Assembly (NCBI GenBank): GCA_947522735.1
Contig: CANNTZ010000002.1
Location: 1-64,000 of the forward strand
Source: an uncultured Oscillospiraceae bacterium
GTDB lineage: Bacteria; Bacillota; Clostridia; Oscillospirales; Ruminococcaceae
DNA: 64,000 nucleotides
Direction of reading: 5' to 3'
In this document: piece by piece, positions 1-19,007 of the stretch
Position numbering within the stretch: the stretch's first letter is position 1
Layout of the letters: each line of letters begins with the position of its first letter
Made by a program: the position numbers and the translations under genes
The notes under the pieces: generated by a model
What the model was told of the DNA's origin: nothing
Seen by the model: only the letters and a program-made list of their open reading frames with translations
Database searches by the model: none

Positions 1-38
1 GGTGGATGCGGCGGGTTCGATCCCCGTAGCCCGCTCCA
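1..38 (+). tRNA. 3' portion of a tRNA gene (T-arm + acceptor 3' strand + encoded CCA); 5' part lies outside window
   Basis: GCGGGTTCGATCCCCGT forms T-stem/TΨC-like loop (TTCGATC), followed by 7-nt acceptor strand AGCCCGC, discriminator T and CCA; immediately followed by hairpin+T-tract terminator. Confidence 0.6.
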
Positions 39-43
39 TTGCG

Positions 44-74
44 ACACGTCGGAAACGACGTGTCTTTTGTTTTG
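44..74 (+). terminator. intrinsic terminator downstream of tRNA
   Basis: GACACGTCG-gaaa-CGACGTGTC perfect 9-bp stem followed by TTTTGTTTT. Confidence 0.7.
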
Positions 75-121
75 CGCGACACCTGCACACGCGGCATATA
101 AAACGTTTTATTTGTCCCGTG

Positions 122-160
122 CGCTTAAAACGCAGGAGGCCGGAGCTTACGCCCCGGCCT
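122..160 (-). terminator. hairpin downstream of GRE gene (weak U-tract)
   Basis: GCAGGAGGCCGG/CCGGCCTCCTGC 12-bp inverted repeat directly after GRE stop; on minus strand followed by GTTTTAAG. Confidence 0.45.
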
Positions 161-184
161 CCTGCTGTATTGACTTATTGTTTT

Positions 185-2209
185 TCATGCGCCGAACTCA
201 ATGCGGCTGATTATGTGCTCCTGATATTCCGGATCCAGCTCGCAGAAATATCCGCTCCAGCCCCAAACGCGCACGATCAGGTTTGGATGCTTCTCCGGAT
301 GCAGCTTTGCGTCGAGCAGGCGGTCGCGGTTTATCGCATTGAGCTGTAGCTGATGCCCGCCAAGCCGGATGTACATCTCCACGAGCTGCGCCACCTTCCG
401 AATGCCGTCCTCATTGCGGAAAACCGTGTCGTGCAGCTCCATCGTCAGCGGTCCGCCGTTGATAATGTTCTTCATGTCGTACTTCGTGAACGACTGAATG
501 ACCGAGAGCGGGCCGTCAAGCCGCACGCCGAGCGACGGCGAATAGCTGCTGCTGTAATATTCGCCGCTGCGCCGTCCGTCTGCTGTCGCCGGGCACTCCC
601 TGGCGCTGAAAACGTACGCCATCGCGCTGCCGGTCCCGGCGCGGTATATCCCGCCTCTGCCGTTGGGCCGTCCGTTTAACGTGCGTGCGAACGTATCGGT
701 TATGTCCGACGCGATCAGGTCGACATAATCGTCGTTGTTGCCCATTTTCGGACATGCAAGCAGCCTGCCGCGCAGCTTTTCATAACCCTCAAAGTTCGCG
801 TCCAACGCCCTGAAAAGCTCCTCCACGCTTGTCGAACGCTCGTCGTATATCACTCGTTTGACCGCCGCAAGCGCATCCGCAGCATTGGATATACCCGCAC
901 CGTGGATGCCGGAGTTGTTGTATTTCGCCGCGTTGTCCGAGACGTCGCGCCCCTTTTCCAGACAGCCGTCCACAAACAGCGACAGATATGGCGCGCACAG
1001 CACCCGTCTGCCATAGCTCCTCATTGCGCACTCAACCGTTTTATCTGCAATGTCTGCTCTGACTTTTTCCATCAGCCTCTCAAAGCTGTCGCAGCAGCTC
1101 AGATGGGCGCGGATAGAATCGTTTACCACCAGCGGAAAGTTGAATACGTCAATGTTAGGCACGTCCATACCGCAGCTTGGCACGATAAACTCCCAGCACG
1201 CGGCGACGGTGTAATCCAATGCGTCGTCATAGTCGTATCCAAGCGCCGCAAGTCCCGGCACAACCACGTCATCGTTGCAGTATTGCGGGAATCCAAGCCC
1301 TTTTTTCGTCAGCCGCGTGCCGTACTCATACAGCTCCGACGGTGTATTTTTGCCAACGCGCAGATTGATTTTCGGGTCTATCAGGCATAGCTCAAGCGAC
1401 GCGTCCATACAGAGTGCCGACAGCTCGTTGAACATGCTGTGCCCGTTTTTGTCAAATCCTCCCAGCACCATGCTCTGCCCGTTATCGCCCTGCTGGATAC
1501 CGTGATATAGATCGGCGTCAAGGTTGAGAGATATGAAAAATAACTCAAGCGTTTCAAGAAGCTCCTCACGCGCAGTCCCGTTTTGAGCGTCGCGGAGGTA
1601 ATATGGGTACATATATTGGTCGAAGCGCCCGAGCGTCAGGTGTTCATACGGACAGCAGCGCAGCGAAAAATGCAATATCTTCAAAAAGAGACACGCCTCG
1701 TAAAAGCTCTCCGCAGGCCGATTCGGTACCCTCTCAAGCGCGGCGGACAGGCGCTCGTTCCCGGTGCGTCCGGCTTCAAGGCGATATCTGTCGCAGACGC
1801 CGAGCAGCGCGCGTATGTGCCGTCTTATCGATGAATAAAACGATTTAGCATATTTGTCGGCGGTTTTTTCGCGTTCGTTCAACTCATCAAGAATAGAATC
1901 AAAGCCGCGTCCGAGCACCCTTGCATAATTCGGCGTTATGTTTCCAACCGGCTCCGCATATCCATTCTCGGCATAGCCGATTCGCGGACAATACGGCAGC
2001 TCTTTTACCGTGCGGTTGAACCCGAAGATATCATGCTCAAATATGTTCGCGCGCTCCAGCCCCATCATCGTCTCAAAGCTGAGCGCGTGCGCGTCTAATT
2101 GCTCCAGCTCCCGCGTCCGCTCCGAAAGATCCGGCGTGACAGTCGTGCGCTTTGCACGATAACTCCGGCTGTTCAGGCATTCAAGCATCCTTTGGACATT
2201 CTCCGTCAT
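185..2209 (-). CDS. glycyl radical enzyme (pyruvate formate-lyase superfamily), short 674-aa form
   Basis: C-terminal NLIVRVWGWSGYFCEL resembles Gly-radical motif RVxG[FWY]; internal EFIVPSCGMD candidate thiyl Cys loop; ATGA overlap with upstream activase; RBS GAGGTGAGGG. Confidence 0.8.
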   Translation of the reverse strand: MTENVQRMLECLNSRSYRAKRTTVTPDLSERTRELEQLDAHALSFETMMGLERANIFEHDIFGFNRTVKELPYCPRIGYAENGYAEPVGNITPNYARVLGRGFDSILDELNEREKTADKYAKSFYSSIRRHIRALLGVCDRYRLEAGRTGNERLSAALERVPNRPAESFYEACLFLKILHFSLRCCPYEHLTLGRFDQYMYPYYLRDAQNGTAREELLETLELFFISLNLDADLYHGIQQGDNGQSMVLGGFDKNGHSMFNELSALCMDASLELCLIDPKINLRVGKNTPSELYEYGTRLTKKGLGFPQYCNDDVVVPGLAALGYDYDDALDYTVAACWEFIVPSCGMDVPNIDVFNFPLVVNDSIRAHLSCCDSFERLMEKVRADIADKTVECAMRSYGRRVLCAPYLSLFVDGCLEKGRDVSDNAAKYNNSGIHGAGISNAADALAAVKRVIYDERSTSVEELFRALDANFEGYEKLRGRLLACPKMGNNDDYVDLIASDITDTFARTLNGRPNGRGGIYRAGTGSAMAYVFSARECPATADGRRSGEYYSSSYSPSLGVRLDGPLSVIQSFTKYDMKNIINGGPLTMELHDTVFRNEDGIRKVAQLVEMYIRLGGHQLQLNAINRDRLLDAKLHPEKHPNLIVRVWGWSGYFCELDPEYQEHIISRIEFGA

Positions 2210-3057
2210 AATACCCTCACCTCTATCCCGTATTTTTCAAAGATATCCATATGTGTCTCCGGACGGCGCTCACCGTCAAATTCCGGTGTGTATTTTCGTC
2301 CGGCAAGCTTATACTTTGCTCCCGCCATCCTGTTATACGGCAGCAGCTCAACTCTTTTGGCACCGTTCTCACGCATGAAGCTTGCGGTAGCATTTATGTT
2401 TTCTTCTGTGTCATTCACTCCCGGTATGAGCGGGATACGGGTGACGAAGGGCACGGCGGAGGCCGCGAGCGCACAATAGTTGCGCAGTATTAAACCGTTT
2501 GAGCCGCCTGTATAACGCCGGTGCCTCTCAGCGTCCATCAGCTTGAGATCATAAAGGACGTAATCGCACTTATCGAGAATCTCATCGAATATTTCCGGCC
2601 CACAGAAGCCTGAGGTTTGCAGCGCACAATTCGTTATCCCGTGCAGTCGCGTCAGGCACTCGGAGAGAAAATCCGGCTGCGCCAGCGGTTCACCGCCGGA
2701 AAAGGTGACGCCTCCTCCGCTCGCATTGAGTATCGCGGCGTTCCGGCATATCCTCTCGACGAGCTCGTCGCTCGTATAATCCACGGCGCAGGCGCGCACC
2801 AGCTTTCTGGGACAGACGTCCACGCTGCTTTGGACAAGGCAGGCACGTCCGGTCAACCGCCGTCCCTCCTCAAGGCAGGCGCCACAGCCGGTGCAGCCGT
2901 TCGGCGAGCGCAGCAGCTCCTGCTCAAACCGCTGCCCCTCCGGGTTGTGACACCACATGCAGCGCAGCGGACAGCCCTTGAGGAACACCGTCATCCGTAT
3001 CCCCGGCCCGTCGTATGTGGAAAACTCCTCTATTGAAAAAATCCTGCCGGTGAGCAA
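2206..3057 (-). CDS. glycyl-radical enzyme activating enzyme (radical SAM, with ferredoxin-like Cys-rich insert)
   Basis: N-term GRIFSIEEFSTYDGPGIR + CPLRCMWCHNPE (CxxxCxxC) typical of GRE activases; extra CTGCGAC...CPRKLVRAC clusters; TTG start after AGGGATGA RBS. Confidence 0.85.
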   Translation of the reverse strand: MLTGRIFSIEEFSTYDGPGIRMTVFLKGCPLRCMWCHNPEGQRFEQELLRSPNGCTGCGACLEEGRRLTGRACLVQSSVDVCPRKLVRACAVDYTSDELVERICRNAAILNASGGGVTFSGGEPLAQPDFLSECLTRLHGITNCALQTSGFCGPEIFDEILDKCDYVLYDLKLMDAERHRRYTGGSNGLILRNYCALAASAVPFVTRIPLIPGVNDTEENINATASFMRENGAKRVELLPYNRMAGAKYKLAGRKYTPEFDGERRPETHMDIFEKYGIEVRVL

Positions 3058-3105
3058 AAAATCATCCCTTTAAATCCATACGTGCGTCACATAATATCTA
3101 TGGCT

Positions 3106-3135
3106 TACGATAATATTATAATTCTGCACGCTTGA
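3106..3135 (+). promoter_or_regulatory. sigma70-like promoter for AraC regulator (approximate)
   Basis: TTGAAA-17-TATACAAT upstream of 3193 in AT-rich divergent intergenic region. Confidence 0.4.
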
Positions 3136-3192
3136 AAACAAAAGAAATATGTTATACAATAGTAGCAATAAATTATCTTTCGGAGGTCGCGT

Positions 3193-3990
3193 ATGGTATT
3201 TCATCAGGACGGCAATTCGCTTGGAAATTATAATTACAACGCGTTTTTCTATGACAACGTTGAATGGCCGCCGCATTTTCATCGCAACTTCGAGCTTGTG
3301 CACCTGCTGCGTGGCGAGGTTTCGCTGACGGTCGGCGGCGTGCAGGAGACGCTGCGAGAGGGCGATTACGCGCTTGTGCTCTCCAACCAGATTCACTCCT
3401 ATCTCCGTATAAGCGATTTCCTGATGTGGATAGCCGTGTTTTCGGAGGATTTTGTCCCGGATTTTGCCGCGATCATGACAGACCGCCAGAGCCGCCGTCT
3501 CTCATTCCGTTTTGACAGCGAAACGCATTGCGCAGCGCTCATACGCTCTAATCTTATCTTCGGGCATAGCTCCGTGATTATGAAAAAAGCCTGTTTTTAT
3601 GCGGCCTGCGACCGTTATCTTCAAATCGCCGAGTTAGAGGAGCGCCGCAGCAAAAACGATTTTCTGATCTGTGCGCTGCTCGACTATATCGCACGGCATT
3701 TCACCGAAAACATCACGCTGCACGATACCGCCGCGCATTTCGGCTATGAATACCACTATCTCTCACGCCTTCTCAATCGCAGCTACAAGCTCGATTTTCG
3801 CGCGCTCGTCAACCGTTACCGTGTGGATCGCGCCGCCGAGCTGCTGCGTCAAGGCGTGCTGCCGATCACAAGCGTCGCGATGCAGAGCGGCTTTCAGAGC
3901 ATACGCAGCTTCAATTACGTTTTTCGCGAGCTTAAAGGCTGCGCCCCCGGCGAATATGCAGGAAGGCGGGTTTGCTATAAAACGTTTTAG
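3193..3990 (+). CDS. AraC family transcriptional regulator (N-terminal cupin sensor + C-terminal HTH)
   Basis: HFHRNFELVHLLRGEVSL cupin motif; C-terminal ITSVAMQSGFQSIRSFNYVFRELKGCAPGEY AraC HTH signature; RBS GGAGG. Confidence 0.85.
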   Translation: MVFHQDGNSLGNYNYNAFFYDNVEWPPHFHRNFELVHLLRGEVSLTVGGVQETLREGDYALVLSNQIHSYLRISDFLMWIAVFSEDFVPDFAAIMTDRQSRRLSFRFDSETHCAALIRSNLIFGHSSVIMKKACFYAACDRYLQIAELEERRSKNDFLICALLDYIARHFTENITLHDTAAHFGYEYHYLSRLLNRSYKLDFRALVNRYRVDRAAELLRQGVLPITSVAMQSGFQSIRSFNYVFRELKGCAPGEYAGRRVCYKTF

Positions 3991-5717
3991 TCGGCGTACT
4001 CCCTGTCGATACGCGCGGAGTACTCCTTCCAGACTGCCGATATGGCGTAAAAGTCGTCGTCGGTAATCTCGCCGTGCGGGGTCAAGCAGTAGCAATCCGG
4101 CACTCCGATATCCTGCTGGTTCAGCATCCAGCGCATGGTATCGCGGCGGCTTGCGAAGCCCGCGTTATCGGTATCTATAAGCGTTCCGGGCATTGCGAGG
4201 GCAAACATCCTGGCGCGCATTGCGAGATCCTCGTAGTTGCAGCGGTTCCCGGCGGCGTAGTCGTGAACGCGCGCCTGATCGCATATGTGCGAGAAATACG
4301 GATGACACGGGCTGCAATTGATGAGCGCATTGGGCTTGACCCGCTTCGCGCAGTCGTAGATGTGCGCCATCAGCTCATAGAGCAGCTCGCAGCCATACCT
4401 GCCTGAGCGGGTTGTAAAGCCGCGGCCTATCGGGAAATAAAATGCAAAATCGATCTTGACGCCGTCGCAGTTGTAGCAGCCCTCGTCGGATGAGAGCAGC
4501 GTGTGCATCAGGCGCTCGATGTGCGCCTTAAATTCCGGCGTGGAGGGATCAATGCGGACGTCGCCATTGTCGGCGGTCACGCACAGCTCGCGCGGCCAGC
4601 CCTCGGGATCCCACAGCTTGAACCACAGCAGGGTGTTTATGCCCTCGGCATGGCGTTTGTCTACAAACGCGCGCAGATCTGGCCACTTTTCTGTATCGAC
4701 CTCGCCGGTGGCATATTCCCGCTGCCACTTGTCGTCGATTATGAGCGCCGTCGGATGCAGGTCGTATTTGCGCATCTGTCCTAAAAGATACTCGTACTCC
4801 TCCTCGCACGCAAGCTCGCTGCCTGTTCGCCCGTTTATCTCTCTGCGGCACTGGTCAATCCAGCCGCAGAGCAGCGGCCCTTTCCAGAACCTAGGCGTAA
4901 GCTCGCGCTTTTTCGGCCTTGCGATGCCTGACGAGAAATAATAGTCGGAGTATCTGCGCATCACGTCGAGCTCGTCGTTTGCGGCGTAGCCGATAATCGC
5001 GGGCGACACCCATTCGCCGTCAACGTGAGTGTGTCCATGCTGATCGGTAGAAAGGTAGAACGCAGAGTGCCAATCGGCGCCGCAGAAGTTGTAGGTCAGG
5101 CTGTTGAAGTTGTGCTCGCCGCGGCGGGCGACTGCGCCAAGCCCCAGCCATTCATGAAGCCCCTCGGTGCGGAAGGCGTAGCAGTGCATCGGCGGGATCA
5201 TCAGCACCGACCAGCGGTAGCAGCTCTGGTTTGCCTTGAAGTAGTAGTTCTCCTCCTCGAACCATGAGCGGCAGGGATTGAAGCCCTCGGAAAATTCGTA
5301 GCCGCTGCCCTTGTAGAGCGCGGTGATATCGCCGCTGAAGTAGTTGACCGAATCCACTCTGCCCCGGCCGCTGACGCTCACATTATATGCAAAGCGCTGC
5401 GCAGTGCAGGAGAGGGTGTATTTTTTGCTCCAGAGCGCCGTTTTGCCTCGCCATGTAAAGACGCAGAGCTCCCCCTGCTCCACAGCTCCCTCGAATACCG
5501 GCAGCTCCGGCTCCGTGTCGGTCACTACCTCGTTTGCGGCCGTCAGCGAATTTACCGCGCTGCGCATGTCCAGCCTCGCGACGGTCGTCCCGGAGATCAC
5601 GACGTCCGCACGCGCCCTGTCTGCGTCTATCCGCAGCCCGTACCGCAGCGCGTCTACGCTGTATTCAGAACCGTTCCTGTCAAGCTTGAGCCCCTTCACC
5701 GATGTGTCCTCCCCCAT
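3987..5717 (-). CDS. putative glycoside hydrolase (TIM-barrel, melibiase/alpha-galactosidase-like)
   Basis: LIIDDKWQ (DDGW-like) and CDGVKIDFA motifs reminiscent of GH27/36-type catalytic barrel; 576 aa ORF with protein-like composition. Confidence 0.4.
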   Translation of the reverse strand: MGEDTSVKGLKLDRNGSEYSVDALRYGLRIDADRARADVVISGTTVARLDMRSAVNSLTAANEVVTDTEPELPVFEGAVEQGELCVFTWRGKTALWSKKYTLSCTAQRFAYNVSVSGRGRVDSVNYFSGDITALYKGSGYEFSEGFNPCRSWFEEENYYFKANQSCYRWSVLMIPPMHCYAFRTEGLHEWLGLGAVARRGEHNFNSLTYNFCGADWHSAFYLSTDQHGHTHVDGEWVSPAIIGYAANDELDVMRRYSDYYFSSGIARPKKRELTPRFWKGPLLCGWIDQCRREINGRTGSELACEEEYEYLLGQMRKYDLHPTALIIDDKWQREYATGEVDTEKWPDLRAFVDKRHAEGINTLLWFKLWDPEGWPRELCVTADNGDVRIDPSTPEFKAHIERLMHTLLSSDEGCYNCDGVKIDFAFYFPIGRGFTTRSGRYGCELLYELMAHIYDCAKRVKPNALINCSPCHPYFSHICDQARVHDYAAGNRCNYEDLAMRARMFALAMPGTLIDTDNAGFASRRDTMRWMLNQQDIGVPDCYCLTPHGEITDDDFYAISAVWKEYSARIDREYAD

Positions 5718-5728
5718 ATCAATATCAT

Positions 5729-6988
5729 TTATTTGACGTATTTATATTCAAGCAGCTTCCATGCCACCTTGACGTCCGCGAGCACGTCCGCTACGACACC
5801 GTCATGCACGTATTCCTCGCTCAGCACCCTGCCCTCGCGGCGCACCAGCGCCAGAAGCCCCTCCTTGCCATATGGCAGCTTTACCATCATACGGGTCTGG
5901 CTGGACGAGAGCGCTTTAAGCATGCCATTTATAAGCTCCTCCAAGCCCTCTCCGGTTTTGGCCGAGATGCCGATCACAGTCCGGCTGCCGGTGAGGTGGG
6001 GCAGCTCGAAAGTGCGGTCGCACTTGTTGAGCACGGTTATACGCGGCGTTTCCGCGGCTCCAAGCTCCTCAAGCAGCTTTTCCGAGACCTCTATGTGCTC
6101 CTCAAGCTCCGGGCTGGACGCATCGCAGACGTTGAGGATGAGGTCGGCGGAGGCCGCCTCCTCCAGCGTAGATTTGAACGCCTCGACAAGATGATGCGGA
6201 AGCCTACGGATAAATCCGACGGTATCTACAAGTATCAGCGTCCTCCCGTCGGGCAGCTCCATACCGCGCGAGGTTGGGTCGAGCGTCGCGAAAAGCATAT
6301 CCTCCGACATCACCTCCGCGCCGGTCAGCGCGTTGAGCAGCGTCGATTTGCCCGCGTTGGTGTAGCCTACTATCGCCGCCGTCAGCCGGTTGTCCTTTTT
6401 TCTGCGTGAACGCAGCAGTCCGCGGCGCTTTTCCAGCTCGCGCAGCCGTTCTTCGAGAATCGATATCCGTCTGCGGATATGCCGCCGGTCGGTTTCCAGC
6501 TTGGTCTCGCCGGGACCGCGCGTGCCGATGCCGCCGCCGAGACGCGAGAGCGCCTGCCCCGCGCCGATGAGCCGCGGCAGGCGATATCTGAGCTGCGCCA
6601 GCTCCACCTGAAGCTTGCCCTCGGCTGTTATGGCGCGCCCAGCGAAGATATCAAGTATCAGCATCGTCCGGTCGATCACCGCAAGGCCCGTCGCGTCGCC
6701 GATGTTGCGGAGCTGCACCGCGCTCAGCTCGTGGTCAAAAATCAGCAGCACATCTCCATCTCCGTCGGCGAGCGCCCTTATCTCCTCCAGCTTGCCCTGT
6801 CCCGCAAGCGTCGCGGCGTCGTATTCGCCGCGTCTCTGTATTACCTGTGCGACTACCTGTGCTCCGGCGGTCGCGGCAAGCTCCGCCAGCTCGTTTATCG
6901 AGCTTTCGGCATCAAATTCCCCCACATCAACGCAGACGAGTATCGCGCGCTGCGCCTCGGTCACTGCGAGCTCATGTGTGTTCAGCAT
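5729..6988 (-). CDS. hflX: GTPase HflX
   Basis: AIVGYTNAGKSTLLNALTG (G1), DTVGFI (G3), N-terminal HflX domain, glycine-rich GGGIGTRGPGETKLE motif; RBS GAAGGGGAA. Confidence 0.9.
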   Translation of the reverse strand: MLNTHELAVTEAQRAILVCVDVGEFDAESSINELAELAATAGAQVVAQVIQRRGEYDAATLAGQGKLEEIRALADGDGDVLLIFDHELSAVQLRNIGDATGLAVIDRTMLILDIFAGRAITAEGKLQVELAQLRYRLPRLIGAGQALSRLGGGIGTRGPGETKLETDRRHIRRRISILEERLRELEKRRGLLRSRRKKDNRLTAAIVGYTNAGKSTLLNALTGAEVMSEDMLFATLDPTSRGMELPDGRTLILVDTVGFIRRLPHHLVEAFKSTLEEAASADLILNVCDASSPELEEHIEVSEKLLEELGAAETPRITVLNKCDRTFELPHLTGSRTVIGISAKTGEGLEELINGMLKALSSSQTRMMVKLPYGKEGLLALVRREGRVLSEEYVHDGVVADVLADVKVAWKLLEYKYVK

Positions 6989-7039
6989 ATATCGTTCCCC
7001 TTCGTTTTGTCAACCGCCGGTTGCGTACATTTCCCGGGA

Positions 7040-7075
7040 AATATGCCATATTTGAATTTTAGCATATTTTTTCAT
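7040..7075 (-). promoter_or_regulatory. putative sigma70 promoter for hflX
   Basis: minus strand TGTCAA-17-TAAAAT. Confidence 0.35.
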
Positions 7076-7143
7076 CGATTGACAGTATATTTTCATCATT
7101 TCCATATCTGTACCATAAGCTGTACTATTTTTGAGGATACTCC

Positions 7144-8644
7144 TCAAAGCTGCACCCGCTTTGTCGCGATGTTGTCGCAGAAAGCGCGGTCGTGCTCGAC
7201 AAAAAGCAGCGTCGGGCGATACTCCGTTATCAGCGATTCTATCTGTATGCGCGAGAGCACGTCTATATAATTCAGCGGCTCATCCCAGATATAGAGGTGT
7301 GCCTGCTCGCACAGAGAGCGCGCAAGCAGCACCTTTTTCTTCTGCCCGGCGCTGTAATCGCCAATACTCTTCTCGAACTGGACGCGGGCAAAATCCAGCT
7401 TGCGCAGTATCGTCCGAAACAGCGACGGATCGATTCCGCAGCGCCGCTCATATTCCTCGAGGCTTCCGGAAAGCTCCGACGCGTCCTGTCCGACATATGA
7501 TATCCTCAGCCCTCTCGCAACGAACACCTCTCCCTCGCTTTTTACCTCACCGTCGCCCAGTATCCGCTTGATAACGCTGCTTTTGCCGCTTCCGTTGCGT
7601 CCGCAAAGCGCTATCCTGTCTCCCCGCTCAACTGTAAAGGATATATCCTTACAGACGATCCTGTCTCCATAGCCGATCGATACGCCGGAAAATTCGACCA
7701 GCCGCTTAGAGTGGAACGAAAGCGGATGCAGCTTCAGCGTCTCTGCCTTCTCGATATTTTTCAGTAGCTGCGACTTCGCGGCGATCTCCCGGTCTATTCG
7801 TCCCTCTATCGCGCCCACGCGCTTCATCGTCTTTTTTGCCTTTGCCGCCTGCTTTGGCATATATCCCTTCTTGTTGTCCACCTTTCTCGGATCGATCCCT
7901 ATCTTCTTTCGCTCCGCCCTGTCCGACCACTCCGCCTTTTCGCGCGCCGTCTCCTGGAGACGTTCGATATCCTTTTTCAGCCGCGCATCCTGCTCCAGCT
8001 CGTATTTGTCCCGCAACTGGCGGTTGCGATACCACGAGGAAAAGTTGCCGCTCTGTAGCTCTATATCCGCACGGTTGATCGAGAGAATATGATCGACGCA
8101 GCCGTCGAGGAACGCGCGGTCGTGCGAGACAAGGATGAATCCGGATTTGCCGCGCAGGTAGTCCGCAACCAGCTCGCGAGCTTCGGCGTCAAGGTGGTTC
8201 GTCGGTTCGTCGATAAGCAGAAAGCTGTTCTCGCGCAGGAACATTGCCGCCAGAAGCACCCTGGTGCGCTCGCCGTTGGAAAGAGTGTCGAAGGGCCGCC
8301 ACAGCGTCTCCTCCTCCATCTCAAGCCGCGCCAGCTCTCTCAACAGCCGCCAGCGCTCGATGCTGCCGTCTATCTCGTCGAGCACATCGCAGGTGAGCGC
8401 GCTCCGGTCGCGCACCTCATACGGGAAATATTCAAAGTCAACGCCTGCGGTTATACTTCCGCTGTATTCGTACTCGCCCTGAAGCAGCCTGAGAAAGGTG
8501 GTCTTTCCCCTGCCGTTGCGCCCGGTGAAGCCAAGCCGCCAGCTTGTATCTATACGAAACGAGACGTTTTCAAAGACGTTGTCATAGCTGCCGTCATAGC
8601 CGAATGTCAGATTCGACACATTTATCATGGACATTTTTCCCGCC
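7144..8644 (-). CDS. ABC-F family ATPase (tandem NBDs, no TMD), possibly antibiotic-resistance (ARE) type
   Basis: two Walker A (GRNGRGKTT, GRNGSGKSS), two ABC signatures, basic interdomain linker; true start MSMINV with GGAGG RBS (ORF-track start further upstream is spurious). Confidence 0.85.
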
Positions 8645-8940
8645 TCCTTCGACGCAAAAGCTCCATCCTCCTGGCAAATTGCCGGAAGATGGAGCCGATT
8701 CTGCATCAAAAACGGCGGCGCAGGCGCAAAACACGCCGGACAGCCGAAAAACACATCGTCGATGCAAAATATACAGGCGCAACCCGTAAAGCGATCCAAA
8801 TCCCGACAACGAAACAAAGCCCGGAGCGGACGTCGATTCATTATCAGTTTATTTGTGATTACTTACGGTTCCTGTACATTCTCACATCTCGCTTTCCCTC
8901 TTGATAAAACCACTATACCATATATTTTTCCGCTTGTCAA
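8645..8940 (-). promoter_or_regulatory. ABC-F leader region with candidate attenuator elements
   Basis: Minus-strand promoter TTGACA-17-TATAGT at 8912-8940. A start-stop ATG-TGA sits at 8882-8887 behind a GAGGG SD. A 6-codon uORF MYRNRK lies at 8859-8879. A GC hairpin plus TTTTTG is at about 8704-8745, roughly 55 nt upstream of the ABC-F RBS. Confidence 0.5.
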
Positions 8941-9738: not shown

Positions 9739-9981
9739 ATGCGCGAGATAATCCCCGGGCGCATCTATCGCCACTTCAAAGGCGATCTCTATCTCGTCGA
9801 GGCGCTCGCAAAGCACTCCGAGACCGGCGAGAACTGTGTTATCTATCGCCAGCTCTACGGCGACGGCGCGTTGTGGGTTCGCCCGCTTGCAATGTTCAAC
9901 GGAGAGGTCGACCGCGAAAAATATCCCGGCTGCACACAGCGCTATCGGTTTGAGCTTGTCGACGCCAAAAGCTGCCGTTAA
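9739..9981 (+). CDS. DUF1653-family small protein
   Basis: IYRHFKGDLYLV...VIYRQLYG motif characteristic of DUF1653; GGGAGG RBS 7 nt before ATG. Confidence 0.7.
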   Translation: MREIIPGRIYRHFKGDLYLVEALAKHSETGENCVIYRQLYGDGALWVRPLAMFNGEVDREKYPGCTQRYRFELVDAKSCR

Positions 9982-9989
9982 AAACAAAA

Positions 9990-10040
9990 ACGCCCGCCCG
10001 GACAGCCGAATCTATCCGGACGGGACGTTCTGTTTTTCAC
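9990..10040. terminator. bidirectional intrinsic terminator between convergent DUF1653 and thiT
   Basis: A-run, imperfect GC hairpin (GCCCGCCCGGACAG...CTATCCGGACGGGACG), T-run. Confidence 0.5.
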
Positions 10041-10050
10041 CGGCAAAAAA

Positions 10051-10647
10051 TTATTTTCTGCGGCTCTTCTCTATCAGGTTGATGACGGAAAACACAAGCG
10101 GCGTCGCGCCGACTGTGATTATAGTCTCCGGCACCATATACTGCGCGTTGTAGATAAGCGAATAGGTCCACATGCCAAACCTGTTGACGAGGTCGTTCCA
10201 CTGGCCCTCCTTGGTGATCGAGTACCACACGACTGCGCCGCTGAGGAAATGGCAGACAAAGCGCAGCACGCAGACGGTCGCTGCGCCTGCGGTGATGCCC
10301 ACATAGTCGCTTTTGAGGATGCCGCGGTAAATTCCGGCGAGTCCTATGACGGTGAAGGCGATGATATAATCGAACAGCACGCACAGGACGACGCCCCAGA
10401 ACGTCGGGACATACGAAACCGTGCCGATACCCAGCACAAGCTGGAGCACCGAATAGACCAGCGCCGCCTCTATGCCCCACTTCGCGCCGTGACGGTACGA
10501 GAGGATGATGAGCGGCACCATAGAACAGAGCGTTACCGAGCCGCCGAGCGGCGCTTCATAGATTTTGAGCAGCGACAGCACCGTCGCCACAGCGATCATT
10601 ATCGCGCACTCGACCAGAATACGAGTCTTGGAATAAGCCTTTTCCAT
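10051..10647 (-). CDS. thiT: thiamine transporter ThiT/YuaJ (ECF S-component-like)
   Basis: ~198 aa, 6 hydrophobic helices, ThiT-family residues; directly downstream of TPP riboswitch; start MEKAYSK with AAAGGGG RBS. Confidence 0.7.
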   Translation of the reverse strand: MEKAYSKTRILVECAIMIAVATVLSLLKIYEAPLGGSVTLCSMVPLIILSYRHGAKWGIEAALVYSVLQLVLGIGTVSYVPTFWGVVLCVLFDYIIAFTVIGLAGIYRGILKSDYVGITAGAATVCVLRFVCHFLSGAVVWYSITKEGQWNDLVNRFGMWTYSLIYNAQYMVPETIITVGATPLVFSVINLIEKSRRK

Positions 10648-10661
10648 GCCGAAAAACCCCT

Positions 10662-10703
10662 TTGCAAATAAAAAATACCGCACTAATATGGTAAGTGCGG
10701 TAT
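10662..10703 (-). terminator. riboswitch expression-platform terminator
   Basis: minus-strand ATACCGCAC-TTACCATATTA-GTGCGGTAT followed by TTTTTTATTTG, 50 nt upstream of thiT RBS. Confidence 0.7.
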
Positions 10704-10736
10704 TCGTCATTTATAGCTATTTCGGCGCTATATAAA

Positions 10737-10825
10737 CTCCCTACGTTGGCATTACCCATATCAGGTCATAAGGGACCGTGAGAAGCCATCCCACATCACA
10801 GCCGGATTCCGTCCAGCGCCCCTGT
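10737..10825 (-). ncRNA. TPP (THI-box) riboswitch
   Basis: minus strand: GGGGCGC...GGCTGTGAT...GGTCCCTTATGACCTGATATGGGTAATGCCAACGTAGGGAG; 3' half matches THI-box ACCCnnnGAACCUGAUCnGGnUAAUnCCnGCGnAGGGA; CUGAGA element has one mismatch (CUGUGA); upstream of thiT. Confidence 0.6.
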
Positions 10826-10852
10826 TTATTCTTTTGTGCGGCTTCGAGAGCT

Positions 10853-10881
10853 ATTATAGCACGACCGCCGCCGTTTGTCAA
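10853..10881 (-). promoter_or_regulatory. sigma70 promoter for riboswitch-thiT
   Basis: minus strand TTGACA-17-TATAAT perfect consensus hexamers. Confidence 0.65.
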
Positions 10882-11981
10882 GAGTTTCCGCCCCTGATAA
10901 TGCCCGTGAGCTGCGTCAGGATATCGCCGCCGCCATTGAGATTGATGTTTCCGACACGCTCGCAGATGCGCTCGATATATTCCAGCTCCTTTAGCCTGTA
11001 GAGCGTCTGGTTTTCCTCCATCAGCTTCGCCGTGTTGAGCAGCGAGCGGGTGGACGCAACCTCCTCGCGGCGCGTGACGACGTTGGCTTGCGCCTGCTTT
11101 TCCGCCAGCAGCACCGTGTTCATGATGTCGCGCACCTCTCCGGGCAGGATTATGTCCTTTACCCCGGCGTCCTTTATCTCAACAAACAGCTCCTTTTCCT
11201 TCTCGTGCAGCCTTTCGGCAACATATTTCGACAGCCCGTCCTTGTTCGCGAGGATGTCATCCAGCTTGCAGCGTCCGATATAGTCGCGCAGGGCAAGCTG
11301 AACGGCGACGTGGAGCTGCTCGGCATAGTCGTCGATCTCGGTTAGTATCCGCACGCAGTCGGTCACGCGGTAGTTGCAGACAAAGCTTACGCGCACCGTC
11401 ACCTTGTCCTGCGTCATGATCTCCTGACCGGACACGTCGAGCTTCGTCAGGCGTGTATCGACGTAATCGGCGTCAACGCTGACGCCGCCGCGCCAGAAAT
11501 AGTAGGTACCGGCGTCCAGCACCCGCGCCAGCTTGCCGTTAAAGAACACCCGCGCCTTCTGATATTCGGCGACCTCCACCCGCGTGTAAAGCTCGCACGG
11601 CATTGAATCGAACACGTATTCCGGCACAGAGCCGTCCACCTCCGGCGAGGATATGTCTACCAGCTGATATTCGTGGCGGTCGTGGATAGTCCAGAACGCA
11701 TACCGGCCGCTTGTCAATGCCTCCGCAAACCTGCCGTTGACAAAGTGCAGCGCAAGCTGTCGATCCGCTATTTCCGCCACCGACGCCGACGCGGCGACCT
11801 CGCCGTTCGCAAGCAGCGTATCAAGCGCGCAGCGCCCGGACTCTATCGGCTGCGCAAGCGAGACGACCTCTATCTCCCGCCCACCGAGCATGCGGTATTT
11901 TCCGGCGGTCAGCATCCGCATGAACCGGCCGTTTTTGAAGAGAAATCCCCTCTGGTTCTCGTTGATAACGATCGTCCTCAT
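10878..11981 (-). CDS. SPFH/band-7 (stomatin/flotillin-like) domain protein with triplicated N-terminal motif, no TM segment
   Basis: C-terminal band-7 core (DKVTVRVSFVCNYRVTD...coiled-coil EKQAQANVVTRREE); three N-terminal repeats xFxNG(R/K)(F/L)xxxLxxGxYxFW; GGGAGG RBS before ATG at 11981 (ORF-track N-terminal extension to 12416 rejected). Confidence 0.75.
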   Translation of the reverse strand: MRTIVINENQRGFLFKNGRFMRMLTAGKYRMLGGREIEVVSLAQPIESGRCALDTLLANGEVAASASVAEIADRQLALHFVNGRFAEALTSGRYAFWTIHDRHEYQLVDISSPEVDGSVPEYVFDSMPCELYTRVEVAEYQKARVFFNGKLARVLDAGTYYFWRGGVSVDADYVDTRLTKLDVSGQEIMTQDKVTVRVSFVCNYRVTDCVRILTEIDDYAEQLHVAVQLALRDYIGRCKLDDILANKDGLSKYVAERLHEKEKELFVEIKDAGVKDIILPGEVRDIMNTVLLAEKQAQANVVTRREEVASTRSLLNTAKLMEENQTLYRLKELEYIERICERVGNINLNGGGDILTQLTGIIRGGNS

Positions 11982-12398
11982 ATTTAAAACCTCCCGGTCT
12001 ACATTCAGCCCCGCCGCGCCCCATGCAGCCCCGGCGGCGGGAGACTTGAGCACGCCGGTCGCGGAGCGGAAAGCGCCGCTTCTGGCTCCGTGACCGCTAC
12101 GCGCGGTATCCGTCTCCCGGCAAAGCCGTGGCCGCACCGTTCCCTCCGCACATGCGGCAAACCGGGACGCGGCATAGCTTTTTCTTAGCTGTGCGCCTTT
12201 CGGCGTACAAATTAATCGCGCCGTTTCCGGCAAAACCAAACCAACTGGCGATACGCTCCGGCGGATTCCGCCGCCAAAGCGCACGGTGGGATTTGAACCC
12301 ACGTAAAGCAGTTTCCGGCACGGCATACGCTTCGGAAGCTCCCCGCGCACCGCAGTGAAGCGGCAAACCCGCCATTCACACGCAAGCCGGAACTGCAA

Positions 12399-12697: not shown

Positions 12698-13867
12698 TCA
12701 CAGACCTATCGCTTTCATAAAGCAGTCGTACTCATCGACGCTTTGCGCTTTTGTTTTAGATATCCGCAGCAGCCGCGCAAGCCGATCCGGCAGCAGACGT
12801 ATATTGGCGAGCAGCCGCGCAAGCCACGCAACGGGCAGCAGCCACCGACACTTTTGCAAAAAGGTGTAGCGCCGTTCAAGCTCGTCTGCGGGCGGAAAGA
12901 GCATTCTGCAAACGAGCTGCCGCTTAGAGCCGCGCTTCTCCCCCGCATTGCGCAGCTCTACCACCGAGCGGTCGCGGGAATGTCCAAACAGGTCGGAGTC
13001 GAGGGTATAATCGAGCAGACGATCCAGCGTCTCGACGTCCGGCTCCGGCAGCGGGCAAAGAGTGCTGACGCCGAACCATACGCGGCAGGCGTTCATCACG
13101 GTGTGGAAAAAGTCCGTCAGGCGCAGCGCGGCAAACTCTTTTTCGATGGCGAGCCAGTTCAGGCGCGCATCCTCGCGCTTTACATACAGCGCCGCGTCCA
13201 GATACATCCGCAGTCCCGCGCCTCCGCGATAGAGATGCTTTGCCAGGTGGCACACGGTGTAGATGAAGTGAAAATCCGGCGCAGGCCGGTACCGCAGGCC
13301 CTCATCCGGCTCCGCATACCGCCACGCGCCGTCGAAATACGTCTGCATATCTGCGCGCCCGTCCAGATTGCCGTCCATCAGCATAGTGTGTATTTCGTAA
13401 TACTCCGCGTCCTTTAGATAGGAATAGGACGGCTCCCAGTCGTGCTCAGCCGTATAACCGAGGGACAGCATCAGCTCATGCGTTTTCCTGCGGTCCTCCG
13501 GACGGATGAGGATATCGATGTCGCCGAAGGTGCGCAGCTCCGGCACGGGATAAAGCGCGCGGAGGTAGTAGCCCTTGACCGGCATATGGGCGACACCGTG
13601 CTCCGTAAAGACCTGTGAGAGCGTCTCAAAGGCCGTGCAGCGGTTGAGGTTGCCGACAAGCGCCGCGTACAGTATGCCGTTGAGCCTGCGGCAGAGCTTT
13701 GCGTCCCCAAGCATCCCCCAACGCCTGTTCTCATACGCCAGAACCGGCAGCAGATTCTGCCGCGCGGCCTCCGGCCACAGCGTTCGTATATTCGATTGAT
13801 CTATCCTCTCCGGCGGCGCGTCCTGTACAAAGCTGCGCAGCGGCACGAGAAGCTGTTTGTTCGACAT
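12698..13867 (-). CDS. uncharacterised nucleotidyltransferase-family protein (last gene of polysaccharide operon)
   Basis: GDIDILIRPED pol-beta-type nucleotidyltransferase motif; 389 aa. Confidence 0.6.
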   Translation of the reverse strand: MSNKQLLVPLRSFVQDAPPERIDQSNIRTLWPEAARQNLLPVLAYENRRWGMLGDAKLCRRLNGILYAALVGNLNRCTAFETLSQVFTEHGVAHMPVKGYYLRALYPVPELRTFGDIDILIRPEDRRKTHELMLSLGYTAEHDWEPSYSYLKDAEYYEIHTMLMDGNLDGRADMQTYFDGAWRYAEPDEGLRYRPAPDFHFIYTVCHLAKHLYRGGAGLRMYLDAALYVKREDARLNWLAIEKEFAALRLTDFFHTVMNACRVWFGVSTLCPLPEPDVETLDRLLDYTLDSDLFGHSRDRSVVELRNAGEKRGSKRQLVCRMLFPPADELERRYTFLQKCRWLLPVAWLARLLANIRLLPDRLARLLRISKTKAQSVDEYDCFMKAIGL

Positions 13868-13884
13868 ATTCGGAGCCTTTCGGT

Positions 13885-14758
13885 TTAATTTTGGGGCGTC
13901 AATTCGACCACCGCAATCTCCGGCCGGTTGTTTATCCTCGGGATCGGGCCATGTCCGGCAAGTCCGGAGGTGATAATCATCTGCATATGCTCGCCCAGCC
14001 GGAAGCAGCCGCGGTCATATTCCGGGAACCAGCCCTGCATGGGCGCGTACAGGCCGCCGATAAACGGCAAACGGATCAGTCCGCCGTGTGTGTGGCCGCT
14101 GAGCACAAGCTCCACGTCCCACATGTCGTATGCTCCGTTGAAGATGAAGGTGTCCGGCATATGTGCAAGACAGATTTTAGGTACGCCGGTGTTCTCAAAG
14201 TCCTTCAGAAACCTGTATTCCGGCGACGAGGTAAACTCCTCCTCGCTGCGGCCAAAATAGAAGCCGTATCCCATTGTGCCGCCGATGCGCAGCGGCTGAC
14301 CGTTGACTGCTATGTCCACATAGCTGTCGTTTACCACCGTTGCACCTGTCCGGGCCACACGGTCAAGAAGAGTATCGTCGGCTTTCATATATTCTAGCTC
14401 GTGATTGCCGGGCGCAAAATATACAGGTGCTATCTCGCACAGCCCTTCAAGCAGTTGCAGGAGCTTCTGCACCTCCTCCTCATCCGCGCTGCGGTCAAGC
14501 ATATCGCCGGCAAGCAAGATTACGTCCGGGGACTGCGAGCCGACCCTTGCAATCAGACGGGAGTTGTCCCTGCCGAAGGTTCTTCCGTGCAGGTCGGAGA
14601 GGAGGACGAGGCGGATGGGTGTCCAGAGCTTTTCCATGGAGACGGCGTATGAGCTTGTGCTAATTCTGACGTTGTCAAGCAGGACAGACAGAAAAATGGC
14701 GGCAAGGCAGACGACTGTCATGACGGCGACGCTTGCTAAGCTGTGCTTCATACCGTTC
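13885..14758 (-). CDS. membrane-anchored metallophosphoesterase (calcineurin-like)
   Basis: LSDLHG, GDMLDR, GNHE, SGHTHGG motifs; N-terminal TM helix. Confidence 0.8.
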
Positions 14759-15653
14759 ATCCGATGTGAAAAATGCGCGGCAGCCTGTTCCATCCACGCC
14801 TGATAAAGCGTGCCGCATGGCCACATGCCGCGGCCGCGCCGTATTTTGCCTTATTCAGAAAAAGCGCCCAGACAGAGCCGCCCTGCTCCATCGTGTGCAG
14901 ATCGTCCACCTGTTTTCGATAAAGAGGCGTTTGCGTAAACCTTGTCCCCCAATGGAGCAGATCGGTTTTTACGCCGATATCCTCTGCAAGCGCAAGCCCC
15001 TTGGGCAAATTCAGCCGCATTCGTCCGAGATGCTCCCAATAGCACAGGATCCCCTGCAAATCATGCGGAATCGGCTTGCATCCGTTCAAGGCCATGCCAA
15101 GTGCGACCAGCGGCTCATCCCCTGGCGTTGCGAATTTTCCCTTGAAACGATAAGCTCCATAGTGCGGGACCAGCTCCTGCGCCGTTTCCAGCACCGCTTT
15201 GCACCGCACCGTTTTTCGCATATAATAGATCCCCCCGTGGAGCCCCACCACATAGGAGACCCTCTCCTTCAAGTCCCCCAGATTCTTGTACTCAAACCAG
15301 CCGGTCGTATCGTCCAGCGGCAAAACCCGGCCAAAGCAGGAAAAGTCATCCGCCTCCCGAAACAGCTCGAACAGCCGGTTCAGGTCGCCATAGGCCAGAC
15401 AGTCTGCGTCAATGAAGATGTTCACGTCATACGGTAAAAGCTCGAGCATCTCCAGCTTGTCCAGATAGCTGCGGTGCGCTTGCGAAAAAACGCGCACATC
15501 ATCGAACTCCGCCGTATATCCGTTCTCCTGATCCGCCAGAATCGCAAACGGAAGCGGAGAACTGCAAAACCAGCGGTACGAGTGCAGGAGGTTTGCTGCC
15601 ATTTTATAATACTGTGCGTCGCCGGTGGCGATGGTGACAAAGCCGTGCGTCAT
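14757..15653 (-). CDS. putative glycosyltransferase (GT8-like nucleotide-diphospho-sugar transferase fold)
   Basis: FVTIATGDAQYYKMAANLLHS N-terminal GT8-like pattern and FIDADCL DxD motif; AAGGAG RBS. Confidence 0.45.
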   Translation of the reverse strand: MTHGFVTIATGDAQYYKMAANLLHSYRWFCSSPLPFAILADQENGYTAEFDDVRVFSQAHRSYLDKLEMLELLPYDVNIFIDADCLAYGDLNRLFELFREADDFSCFGRVLPLDDTTGWFEYKNLGDLKERVSYVVGLHGGIYYMRKTVRCKAVLETAQELVPHYGAYRFKGKFATPGDEPLVALGMALNGCKPIPHDLQGILCYWEHLGRMRLNLPKGLALAEDIGVKTDLLHWGTRFTQTPLYRKQVDDLHTMEQGGSVWALFLNKAKYGAAAACGHAARFIRRGWNRLPRIFHIG

Positions 15654-15659
15654 AAGGTA

Positions 15660-16643
15660 TCACTCCTTAAACCCAAGGATTTTTCGGATTTTGACCAGAT
15701 AGGCGTATGGTCTGACCAGCCTCGGGCAGACCAGTGATAGATACCAGCTAAAGGTATCATAAACGCAGGATCTGCGTATATGCCGCAATGCAGCCAGTTT
15801 GTGGATGCGATACTCCGTGGGAATCCGGTCGGATTGCCTGCTGCCATAAGCGCGAATTACCGTTTTGGCCTGCGCGACCCTTTGGGCGTTTCGCGCCAAT
15901 TCCGCAAGCTCCCGGTCATTTTCCGTATCGAAGAATTGCACGCAGGCTTGAACCGCCCTAACACAATCGAAGCTTTTGACGGAAAAGGGGCGCCCTGTAA
16001 TGCTGTCAGGCCGCGTCCGGTAAAGGTAGAGCTTATCCGGTATAAGACCAACGGCATTTGATCGATAAAGCAACCTCGGTGTTGTCGCGTCATCCTCATG
16101 GATCAGCCCGACCGGATAACGAATCCCGTCAAACAGCCTTGCCGGATATAGCTTTCCCCATGCCATAATGGGCACCTCGCCATCCATGTGATAAATGCTC
16201 AGGCATGCCTCCCGTCCGGTCATTATTTTCAACTGCGTCGCGGCGCACGCATCCACGCATTCGAGCTCGCTCTCATCCGAAAAGGGCCGCATATCGCAGA
16301 CGGCGATATCAACGTTTTCCTGAACAACAGTGTCATGCAGCCTTTTCAGACAGGCGGGCGCAAGCAGGTCGTCACTATCTGCAAACGCAAGATATTCCCC
16401 GGAGGCCGCATCGATTCCGGCGTTTCTTGCCGCGGACAGTCCCCTGTTTTCCTGATGGATTACCCGCACGCGCGGATCCTGTTCCGCATATTCATCACAG
16501 ATTGCTCCGCAGCCGTCCGGCGAACCGTCGTCCACGAGGATCAGCTCAAAATCCGTATAGGTCTGCGCAAGAATACTGTCCACGCATTGACGCAGGTAAG
16601 GCTCTACCTTGTAAACCGGGACTATCACGGATATCGTCGGCAT
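15660..16643 (-). CDS. glycosyltransferase family 2
   Basis: ISVIVPVYKVEPYLRQCVDSILAQTYTDFELILVDDGSPDG...DSDD; AGGGGATGA RBS before MPTISV. Confidence 0.85.
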   Translation of the reverse strand: MPTISVIVPVYKVEPYLRQCVDSILAQTYTDFELILVDDGSPDGCGAICDEYAEQDPRVRVIHQENRGLSAARNAGIDAASGEYLAFADSDDLLAPACLKRLHDTVVQENVDIAVCDMRPFSDESELECVDACAATQLKIMTGREACLSIYHMDGEVPIMAWGKLYPARLFDGIRYPVGLIHEDDATTPRLLYRSNAVGLIPDKLYLYRTRPDSITGRPFSVKSFDCVRAVQACVQFFDTENDRELAELARNAQRVAQAKTVIRAYGSRQSDRIPTEYRIHKLAALRHIRRSCVYDTFSWYLSLVCPRLVRPYAYLVKIRKILGFKE

Positions 16644-16651
16644 ATTGTCAT

Positions 16652-17710: not shown

Positions 17711-17726
17711 AAACACAGCTCCCCTC

Positions 17727-18998: not shown

Positions 18999-19007
18999 AA
19001 GCTTTCC

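Follow-up and report, generated by a model that had tools for sequence, protein, structure and literature searches.

A stretch of 64,000 nt from an uncultured Oscillospiraceae bacterium (contig CANNTZ010000002.1, positions 1 to 64,000; hereafter the window) carries near its start a module of three intact genes, which encode a cupin-AraC regulator, a radical S-adenosylmethionine (SAM) activase and a glycyl radical enzyme (GRE) of only 674 aa. The enzyme is clearly a GRE and not categorically new; what distinguishes it and its relatives is the set formed by a compact N-terminus, the AACWE and RVWGW signatures, a four-Cys insert in the activase and a probable free-sugar substrate. The reading favored here, to which we give even chances, is that of an autonomous, AraC-controlled radical eliminase or isomerase of the CXE type that probably acts on a free plant-derived sugar or a derivative of one. 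Its best-supported part is the predicted mechanism class, CXE-type eliminase/isomerase, which is quite probable because all characterized GRE eliminases and isomerases keep CXE with its Glu bonded to a substrate hydroxyl (review); the assignment of a sugar is more tentative, standing at even or slightly below it. An earlier note on this locus had proposed a GRE of unassigned specificity, likely inducible by its substrate, beside a divergent cupin-AraC gene; that core proposal holds for what is an intact enzyme, probably induced through the divergent AraC protein.

The compact GRE and its active-site signatures

The protein combines a barrel domain (Pfam PFL-like, E 2e-91) with a C-terminal glycyl radical domain (Gly_radical, E 5e-19), as members of the superfamily do. 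The C-terminal string RVWGWSGYF is found, as had been said, at residues 647–655, and its RVWGW aligns to RVAGY of glycerol dehydratase (GD), of PflD and of propanediol dehydratase (PD). The motif had been called atypical, which is correct insofar as Trp flanks the radical Gly on both sides and the stricter PROSITE-type pattern fails, with Trp in place of [CSA] and of Tyr; the wider GRE fingerprint RVxG[FWY]x6-8[IL]x4Qx2[IV]x2R, reportedly put forward by Selmer et al. in 2005, is nevertheless satisfied through R669 in a regular-expression match. The radical Gly, whose presence had been left to be checked, is there as G650, and R647, V648, W649, G650, W651, S652 and G653 are all invariant in an alignment of 40 relatives.

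The Cys loop had been placed at the string VPSCGMD. That string is present, but relatives have G, Y, T, K, S or N in place of its Cys346, which falls outside both the invariant and the 90%-conserved columns of the 40-member alignment. Alignment to characterized GRE clades, the check that the earlier note had proposed, puts the catalytic Cys instead at C338 of AACWE, opposite the catalytic Cys of GCVEP in GD (C433/E435), PflD, PD and 9rco, in pairwise as well as profile alignments. C338, W339 and E340 are invariant in the 40 relatives, and the same three residues are kept in all but one of the 88 GREs encoded by related loci; only a second GRE of locus L011, which is unrelated to the family, departs from them. 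Judged from these alignments, the loop is of the CXE type, as in GRE eliminases and isomerases. The earlier placement of the enzyme on the eliminase/dehydratase side of the superfamily is thus borne out, and because the corrected loop is a CXE motif the eliminase/isomerase reading is strengthened.

An AlphaFold model of the GRE (predicted local distance difference test score, 90.2; predicted template modeling score, 0.90) presents the full barrel with confidence. In it C338 occupies the tip of a beta-hairpin between strands 334–336 and 340–342, and G650 the tip of a hairpin between strands 645–648 and 651–654; the Cys and Gly loops of GREs are expected at beta-hairpin tips (review), and the model has the predicted catalytic Cys on a hairpin loop that would meet the Gly loop, as in the superfamily.

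The nearest solved enzymes by sequence are GD, PflD and PD, with GD the best match (272 bits single-sequence, 383 bits profile), and the best structural neighbor is PflD, a sugar-phosphate isomerase; in both kinds of comparison decarboxylases and X-succinate synthases are clearly more distant. All NCBIfam equivalogs are missed by a wide margin, and even the subfamily model TIGR01774 (PFL2/glycerol dehydratase) stays out of reach, with 339 bits against a cut-off of 678; the second-best GRE model, NF007437 (PRK09983, 'formate C-acetyltransferase'), which we take to be the PflD-type model, gives 293 bits against 1109. An orthologue of GD was rejected on its TIGR01774 score and on its active-site residues: the positions that hold glycerol in GD are swapped (H164 to N90, D168 to N94, S282 to H190, Y339 to G244, D447 to N352 and Y640 to G527), and the residues that replace them vary little or not at all among the 40 relatives. 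His164, Ser282 and Asp447 are glycerol-binding residues of GD, in part according to a review, and N90, H190 and N352 are found in their stead.

N90 and N94 align with GD His164 and Asp168 in profile alignments and belong to a family-specific active-site strand, G89-N90-I-T92-P-N94-Y95, which stands where the dehydratases and PflD have G-H-[IV]-x-[IV]-D-[YF]; this GRE has G-N where GD, PD, PflD, 8id0 and 9rco have a G-H motif in common. Among the 40 relatives N90 and T92 never vary, and conservation reaches 90% or more at P93, N94 and Y95. The bulky Y339 and Y640 of GD align with the invariant glycines G244 and G527, and the barrel is lined by the invariant polar residues N90, D242, N243, Q245, S246 and N352; together, the Tyr-to-Gly replacements and the polar lining would fit a larger, polyhydroxylated substrate.

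Comparison with individual enzymes places the compact family apart from each of them. PflD and YbiW of E. coli (PDB 8YJO, 8ID0, 8YJN, 8ID7) are 26–29% identical to this GRE, measure ~765–810 aa with ~85–95 more N-terminal residues, and carry GxGH where the compact family has GN; they convert 1,5-anhydromannitol-6-phosphate and 1,5-anhydroglucitol-6-phosphate to 1-deoxyfructose-6-phosphate, whereas the neighbors of the compact family are free-sugar transporters, and the activase gene usually comes first in the compact family, unlike in PflD/YbiW. GD of Clostridium butyricum (1R8W/1R9D) and PD (5I2A, 9RCO) have the CXE motif in common with it and the same predicted logic of radical 1,2-elimination; however, five glycerol contacts of GD are lost in the compact family, among them the general-acid His164 (Asn90), and the compact enzymes are ~110–170 aa shorter, lie below the TIGR01774 cut-off and have no microcompartment genes in view. 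The other CXE eliminases HypD, HpyG/HpzG, CutC, IslA/IseG and HpsG/HpfG show 22–26% identity, and none of their equivalog models is reached. The residues with which they anchor their substrates are absent from the compact GRE, for example the Arg/Gln pair of the sulfonate lyases, which probably corresponds to N90 and N94.

The GRE is short, as had been observed (674 aa against 759–1150 aa in solved GREs), and it is not the truncated fragment that the earlier note had wished to see excluded. Among 5.8 billion proteins more than 120 clusters (90% identity clustering) match it with 54–79% identity and 99–100% query coverage, all of them 659–686 aa long, and when a single genome of each species was scanned with a pattern, at least 600 stretches matched, at least 542 of which encode relatives; the length stays at 640–700 aa in no fewer than 542 species genomes from several phyla. 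Most relatives come from metagenome-assembled genomes of Oscillospiraceae and other Clostridia from guts and rumens, with others in Bacteroidota, Kiritimatiellia, Lentisphaerae and Brevinematales, and cultured carriers are Hungatella hathewayi DSM 13479 and Acetatifactor aquisgranensis DSM 110981. At 50% clustering ~25–30 representatives align from profile position 1, followed at much lower scores by mid-length (~690–750 aa) and then ordinary (760–815 aa) GREs. Many 50% representatives of the 690–750 aa clusters align only from profile position 30–88 onward, from which it follows that several unassigned lineages of GREs have shortened N-termini.

Neither the literature nor comparison with NCBIfam and the PDB yielded a paper, a curated model or a solved structure that covers the compact family; the motif strings RVWGW, VWGWSG and AACWE returned nothing on it from the literature, the AARE paper leaves it unmentioned, and a cluster look-up yielded neither names nor accessions for the three proteins. 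A 2026 review points out that the GREs still include complete clades without an assigned function. Two paralogous compact GREs occur on one Oscillospiraceae contig, L029, at 9968–12019 (+) and 1686–3746 (−). The second GRE of L011 (14050–16239), 2 kb downstream of the family member, has 729 aa, 29% identity, the Cys loop GCYEP, the Gly motif VRRCGW and an activase and AraC gene of its own, and represents another unassigned mid-length clade.

Gene neighborhoods of the relatives

Gene context was compared in seven Pfam-annotated public loci and the best 80 GTDB loci, with clustering of the flanking open reading frames (ORFs). Of the 88 loci, 81 have an activase next to the GRE; it is mostly directly upstream (68 cases upstream, 16 downstream), often with the same 4-nt overlap as in the window. 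Activase-first order, described earlier as the reverse of the usual one, is thus the majority arrangement in the family without being universal. Activase-first order is also known in bssDCAB. A homologous AraC gene stands divergently upstream of the activase in 51 of the 61 instances in which a gene of the AraC cluster was found in related loci.

Carbohydrate genes enter the picture with the distant relatives (44–49% identity, same motifs), in which the activase-GRE pair lies inside carbohydrate operons. Extra same-strand genes no more than 300 bp from the pair are present in 43 of 86 related loci, and at least 23 of those 43 include labeled glycoside hydrolase (GH) or sugar transport genes, a lower bound given that gene labeling is incomplete. 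The partners comprise GH2, GH43, GH51, GH127, GH36, GH20 and GH28 enzymes, mutarotase, LacI, XylE-like sugar porters (in three phyla) and RbsABC/MglABC-like monosaccharide ATP-binding cassette (ABC) systems. Arrangements include GH2-activase-GRE-GH43-GH43, ABC transporter-GH51-LacI-activase-GRE, activase-GRE-mutarotase and activase-GRE-GH127, as well as GH51 or GH36-sugar porter-activase-GRE in Bacteroidota and sugar porter-GRE in Kiritimatiellia and Lentisphaerae. In L073, araD, an FGGY kinase gene and araA run divergently beside GRE-activase-mglBAC-like genes, and in L074 these gene clusters recur on the upstream side of the GRE. Since these transporters are proton symporters and CUT2 ABC systems, they deliver free, unphosphorylated monosaccharides.

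Shell genes of bacterial microcompartments (BMCs) are absent within 10 kb on either side in the seven Pfam-annotated loci and among the window genes up to 19 kb, and a BMC-associated GRE was rejected on their absence from the annotated loci. No phosphotransferase system (PTS) or aldolase partners recur in the 88 loci, and no small-subunit genes are present. The activase-GRE pair of locus L087 is immediately preceded, at 4869–8600, by genes that encode a Zn-alcohol dehydrogenase, a 454-aa aldehyde dehydrogenase and a MerR-like protein.

Activase, control region and surroundings of the module

The boundaries that the ORF list gives for the GRE, the activase and the AraC gene are exactly those assigned in the earlier note, and the ATGA in which the activase stop and the GRE start overlap, with the activase upstream, can be read in the sequence; AAGGGA precedes the TTG start of the activase. 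Coordinates are collected in the table.

Table. Features of the module and of its ends (window coordinates; residue numbers refer to the protein concerned)
Feature	Position (nt)	Strand	Basis
3' end of tRNA-Gly(CCC), cut by window start	1–38	+	direct reading; contig L088
Intrinsic-terminator-like hairpin ending the activase-GRE operon	132–165	−	folding against shuffles
Compact GRE, 674 aa	185–2209	−	ORF list; Pfam PFL-like and Gly_radical
Glycyl radical fingerprint R647–R669 (RVWGWSGYFCELDPEYQEHIISR); radical Gly G650 at nt 260–262	203–271	−	regular-expression match
VPSCGMD, residues 343–349, non-catalytic	1163–1183	−	alignment of relatives
Cys loop A336-A337-C338-W339-E340 (CXE); predicted catalytic Cys at nt 1196–1198	1190–1204	−	alignment
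Family-specific active-site strand G89-N90-I-T92-P-N94-Y95	1925–1945	−	profile alignments
GRE-activating radical-SAM enzyme, 283 aa, TTG start	2206–3057	−	ORF list; TIGR02494
Reduced ferredoxin-like insert (C55, C58, C61, C82(P))	2812–2895	−	80 family activases
CX3CX2C radical-SAM cluster motif (C29, C33, C36)	2950–2973	−	100% conserved in 80 family activases
Divergent regulatory region, 135 bp, with back-to-back promoter-like sites and conserved core	3058–3192	.	sequence
Cupin-AraC regulator, 265 aa	3193–3990	+	ORF list; Pfam helix-turn-helix (HTH) and cupin

The activase matches Pfam Radical_SAM and Fer4_12 and exceeds the TIGR02494 cut-off (259 bits against 174). The earlier note had credited it with extra ferredoxin-like Cys clusters, which has to be scaled down: most GRE activases have eight auxiliary Cys residues in two CX2CX2CX3C motifs (review), but of those in the insert only four, C55, C58, C61 and C82, are conserved (95–96% in 80 family activases), with C73 (10%) and C90 (57%) poorly kept. 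Four auxiliary Cys residues would be enough for one extra [4Fe-4S] cluster in this half-size auxiliary domain. The CX3CX2C radical-SAM core is common to this activase and the two-cluster activases CutD, HpdA and BssD, which have eight auxiliary Cys residues where this protein has four (CX2CX2C...CP) in a short insert; the activating enzyme of pyruvate formate-lyase (PFL) has none, and the present activase is thus intermediate between the two types.

The divergently transcribed regulator, inferred earlier as a cupin-AraC protein, is confirmed by its ORF and by its domains (HTH_18 PF12833, E 5e-17; Cupin_2 PF07883, E 6e-8; AraC_binding PF02311, E 4e-7; also HTH_AraC). It has the layout of an AraC/XylS protein with a cupin sensor, with an N-terminal cupin/AraC_binding domain (cupin ~nt 3253–3417) and a C-terminal double HTH (~nt 3730–3960). 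The region between it and the activase contains promoter-like sites on both strands, TTGAAA-17-TACAAT at 3132–3160 (+) and TTTTCA-17-TATTAT at 3138–3110 (−), and a core, AAAGATAA..TGC..ATT.TATAA..TTTTCAAG..TATAATAT, that is kept in locus L004 and, over most of its length, in L003, relatives with 79% and 60% protein identity. Neither direct nor inverted repeats came up when this region between the AraC and activase genes was searched, and therefore no operator can be defined beyond the conserved core.

At the other end, the activase-GRE operon is closed 20 nt past the GRE stop by a strong hairpin (stem of 15 bp; −37 kcal/mol; z = −6.9 relative to shuffled sequences), after which comes the U-run GUUUUAAG. 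An Rfam scan of nt 1–4200 returned sub-threshold chance matches only, with no riboswitch upstream of the operon. The neighboring tRNA gene of the earlier note is tRNA-Gly(CCC), which is outside the module proper. Its fragment in the window consists of the T-stem and loop GCGGG-TTCGATC-CCCGT, the 7-nt acceptor strand, the discriminator and CCA; ARAGORN called zero tRNAs in the window, and in the identical public contig L088 it called tRNA-Gly(ccc) directly beyond the GRE stop (L088 15662–15737). A terminator hairpin of this tRNA gene lies at window positions 43–64. Past the window start, as seen in L088, the spoIIIAA-AE sporulation operon follows the tRNA gene, which marks the host as a spore former within the Clostridia.

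The remaining neighbors in the window are genes for HflX, an ABC-F protein, a thiamine transporter and a polysaccharide biosynthesis cluster. The ORF convergent with the AraC gene (3987–5717, −), with overlapping stops, encodes 576 aa (570 aa in public contigs) and falls into a family made up of ~240 'hypothetical' proteins from Clostridia, 560–580 aa in length, some of which match a GH31 TIM-barrel model; it has a weak PDB match to a GH31 alpha-galactosidase (E 1.3e-3), and by sequence may be an undescribed clan GH-D glycosidase. As a functional partner of the GRE it was rejected, being missing from the 79%-identical L004 and the other 86 related loci. The ABC-F ORF (7144–8841, −) has 565 aa against 496 aa in public contigs, and its N-terminal extension is probably untranslated. 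At ~12700–19000 (−) lies a surface polysaccharide cluster with an NTP_transf_5 nucleotidyltransferase, a metallophosphoesterase, a GT2 glycosyltransferase, a polysaccharide pyruvyl transferase and a Wzt-type ABC ATPase.

Proposed reaction, alternatives and significance

A mechanism can be outlined for such a module. The cupin-AraC protein would sense a small molecule and switch on the divergent activase-GRE operon, and the activase, with its CX3CX2C motif, SAM and a single auxiliary cluster, would abstract a hydrogen atom from G650, as family membership suggests. In turnover the glycyl radical would give rise to a thiyl radical on C338, again by analogy with the family. From the CXE motif it may be expected that the thiyl radical takes a hydrogen atom from a hydroxyl-bearing substrate carbon and that E340 deprotonates the hydroxyl; the resulting ketyl radical would then expel a leaving group, a hydroxyl or an ether or ring oxygen, from the neighboring carbon. 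The outcome would be dehydration or ring-opening isomerization to a carbonyl product, with the hydrogen returned from C338. The relatives' neighborhoods and the predicted pocket residues, polar and leaving more room, point to a free, unphosphorylated neutral sugar or sugar derivative from plant glycans, possibly of arabinose or galactose configuration, as the substrate class.

The conserved AraC-activase-GRE arrangement and promoter region support the reading of the three genes as a module. Several observations weigh against the sugar eliminase/isomerase that we favor. In the window's own clade (50–79% identity) only AraC, activase and GRE are conserved, and the 118 flanking genes match 196 Pfam families, with few GH2, GH3 and GH127 among them. 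The 64-kb window has no sugar catabolic or transport genes save the one weakly GH31-like ORF, and tblastn of the annotated sugar genes from related loci against it found none. L087, alone among the loci, has partners resembling those of a diol dehydratase. With Asn in place of the general-acid His of GD, the leaving-group chemistry is ambiguous. CXE also occurs in arylacetate decarboxylases, and the motif alone is no proof of elimination.

A compartment-free dehydratase of small diols or polyols (of the glycerol, 1,2-propanediol or ethylene-glycol type), whose aldehyde would pass to housekeeping dehydrogenases, would account for the best sequence matches being GD and PD, for the CXE loop and for the alcohol and aldehyde dehydrogenase genes of L087, and a membrane-permeant substrate would suit a stand-alone module; this alternative is nonetheless unlikely, given that the GD contacts are lost, that the TIGR01774 score is half of the cut-off and that the annotated loci hold no BMC shell genes, the recurrent partners being glycoside hydrolases and sugar transporters. 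Ring-opening isomerization of a phosphorylated anhydro-sugar, as by PflD/YbiW, is quite improbable: PflD is the best structural neighbor, but identity to it is only 29%, the NF007437 score is far below its cut-off, GxGH is GN here, no PTS or sugar kinase/aldolase partners recur, and the adjacent transporters deliver unphosphorylated sugars. Rather improbable, too, is some other GRE chemistry (decarboxylation or an undescribed, non-carbohydrate reaction), with a specificity in the window's clade that differs from that of the distant relatives. The window's clade indeed lacks conserved sugar partners, the two clades share only 44–49% identity, and shifts of specificity inside a GRE clade are on record (review); yet AACWE, GNITPNY, QQGDNGQS and VRVWGWSG are common to both, decarboxylases and X-succinate synthases are clearly less similar, and small-subunit genes are absent.

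Two further candidates were rejected. Relatives bear the public names 'pyruvate formate-lyase', 'pflD' and 'formate C-acetyltransferase', but a pyruvate (or 2-ketoacid) formate-lyase is hardly credible, with 72 bits against 994 for TIGR01255 and a loop (A337-C338) that has no Cys-Cys dyad, which excludes PFL chemistry. A truncated or decaying gene might be suspected from a length ~90–110 aa below that of characterized GREs, and is next to impossible in view of the conserved length of the family, the intact catalytic motifs, the modeled barrel and the intact, coupled activase and regulator.

Returning to the sugar eliminase/isomerase, a bolder proposal, and one that we consider somewhat doubtful, is that the compact family as a whole carries out glycyl-radical chemistry directly on unphosphorylated plant monosaccharides or their natural derivatives, for example by dehydrating or ring-opening a sugar of arabinose or galactose configuration, or by eliminating an ether or methoxy group from it. 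Its scaffold would be a minimal GRE, short of the ~75–100 N-terminal residues that supply the helices of the canonical dimer interface, and its activase would manage with just one auxiliary cluster. If this is true, sugar catabolism would have a new anaerobic entry reaction.

The clade is widespread and has cultured carriers, a minimal three-gene architecture and a recurring link to genes of arabinan, arabinogalactan and hemicellulose utilization. The short GRE, together with an activase predicted to carry one auxiliary cluster, might also lend itself to simpler studies of how GREs are activated. GRE reactions matter in the chemistry of gut and rumen, from the formation of trimethylamine, H2S, p-cresol and skatole to the use of hydroxyproline and anhydro-sugars; should the substrate turn out to be a free sugar or a derivative of one, the compact family would add a radical step to the fermentation of plant glycans.

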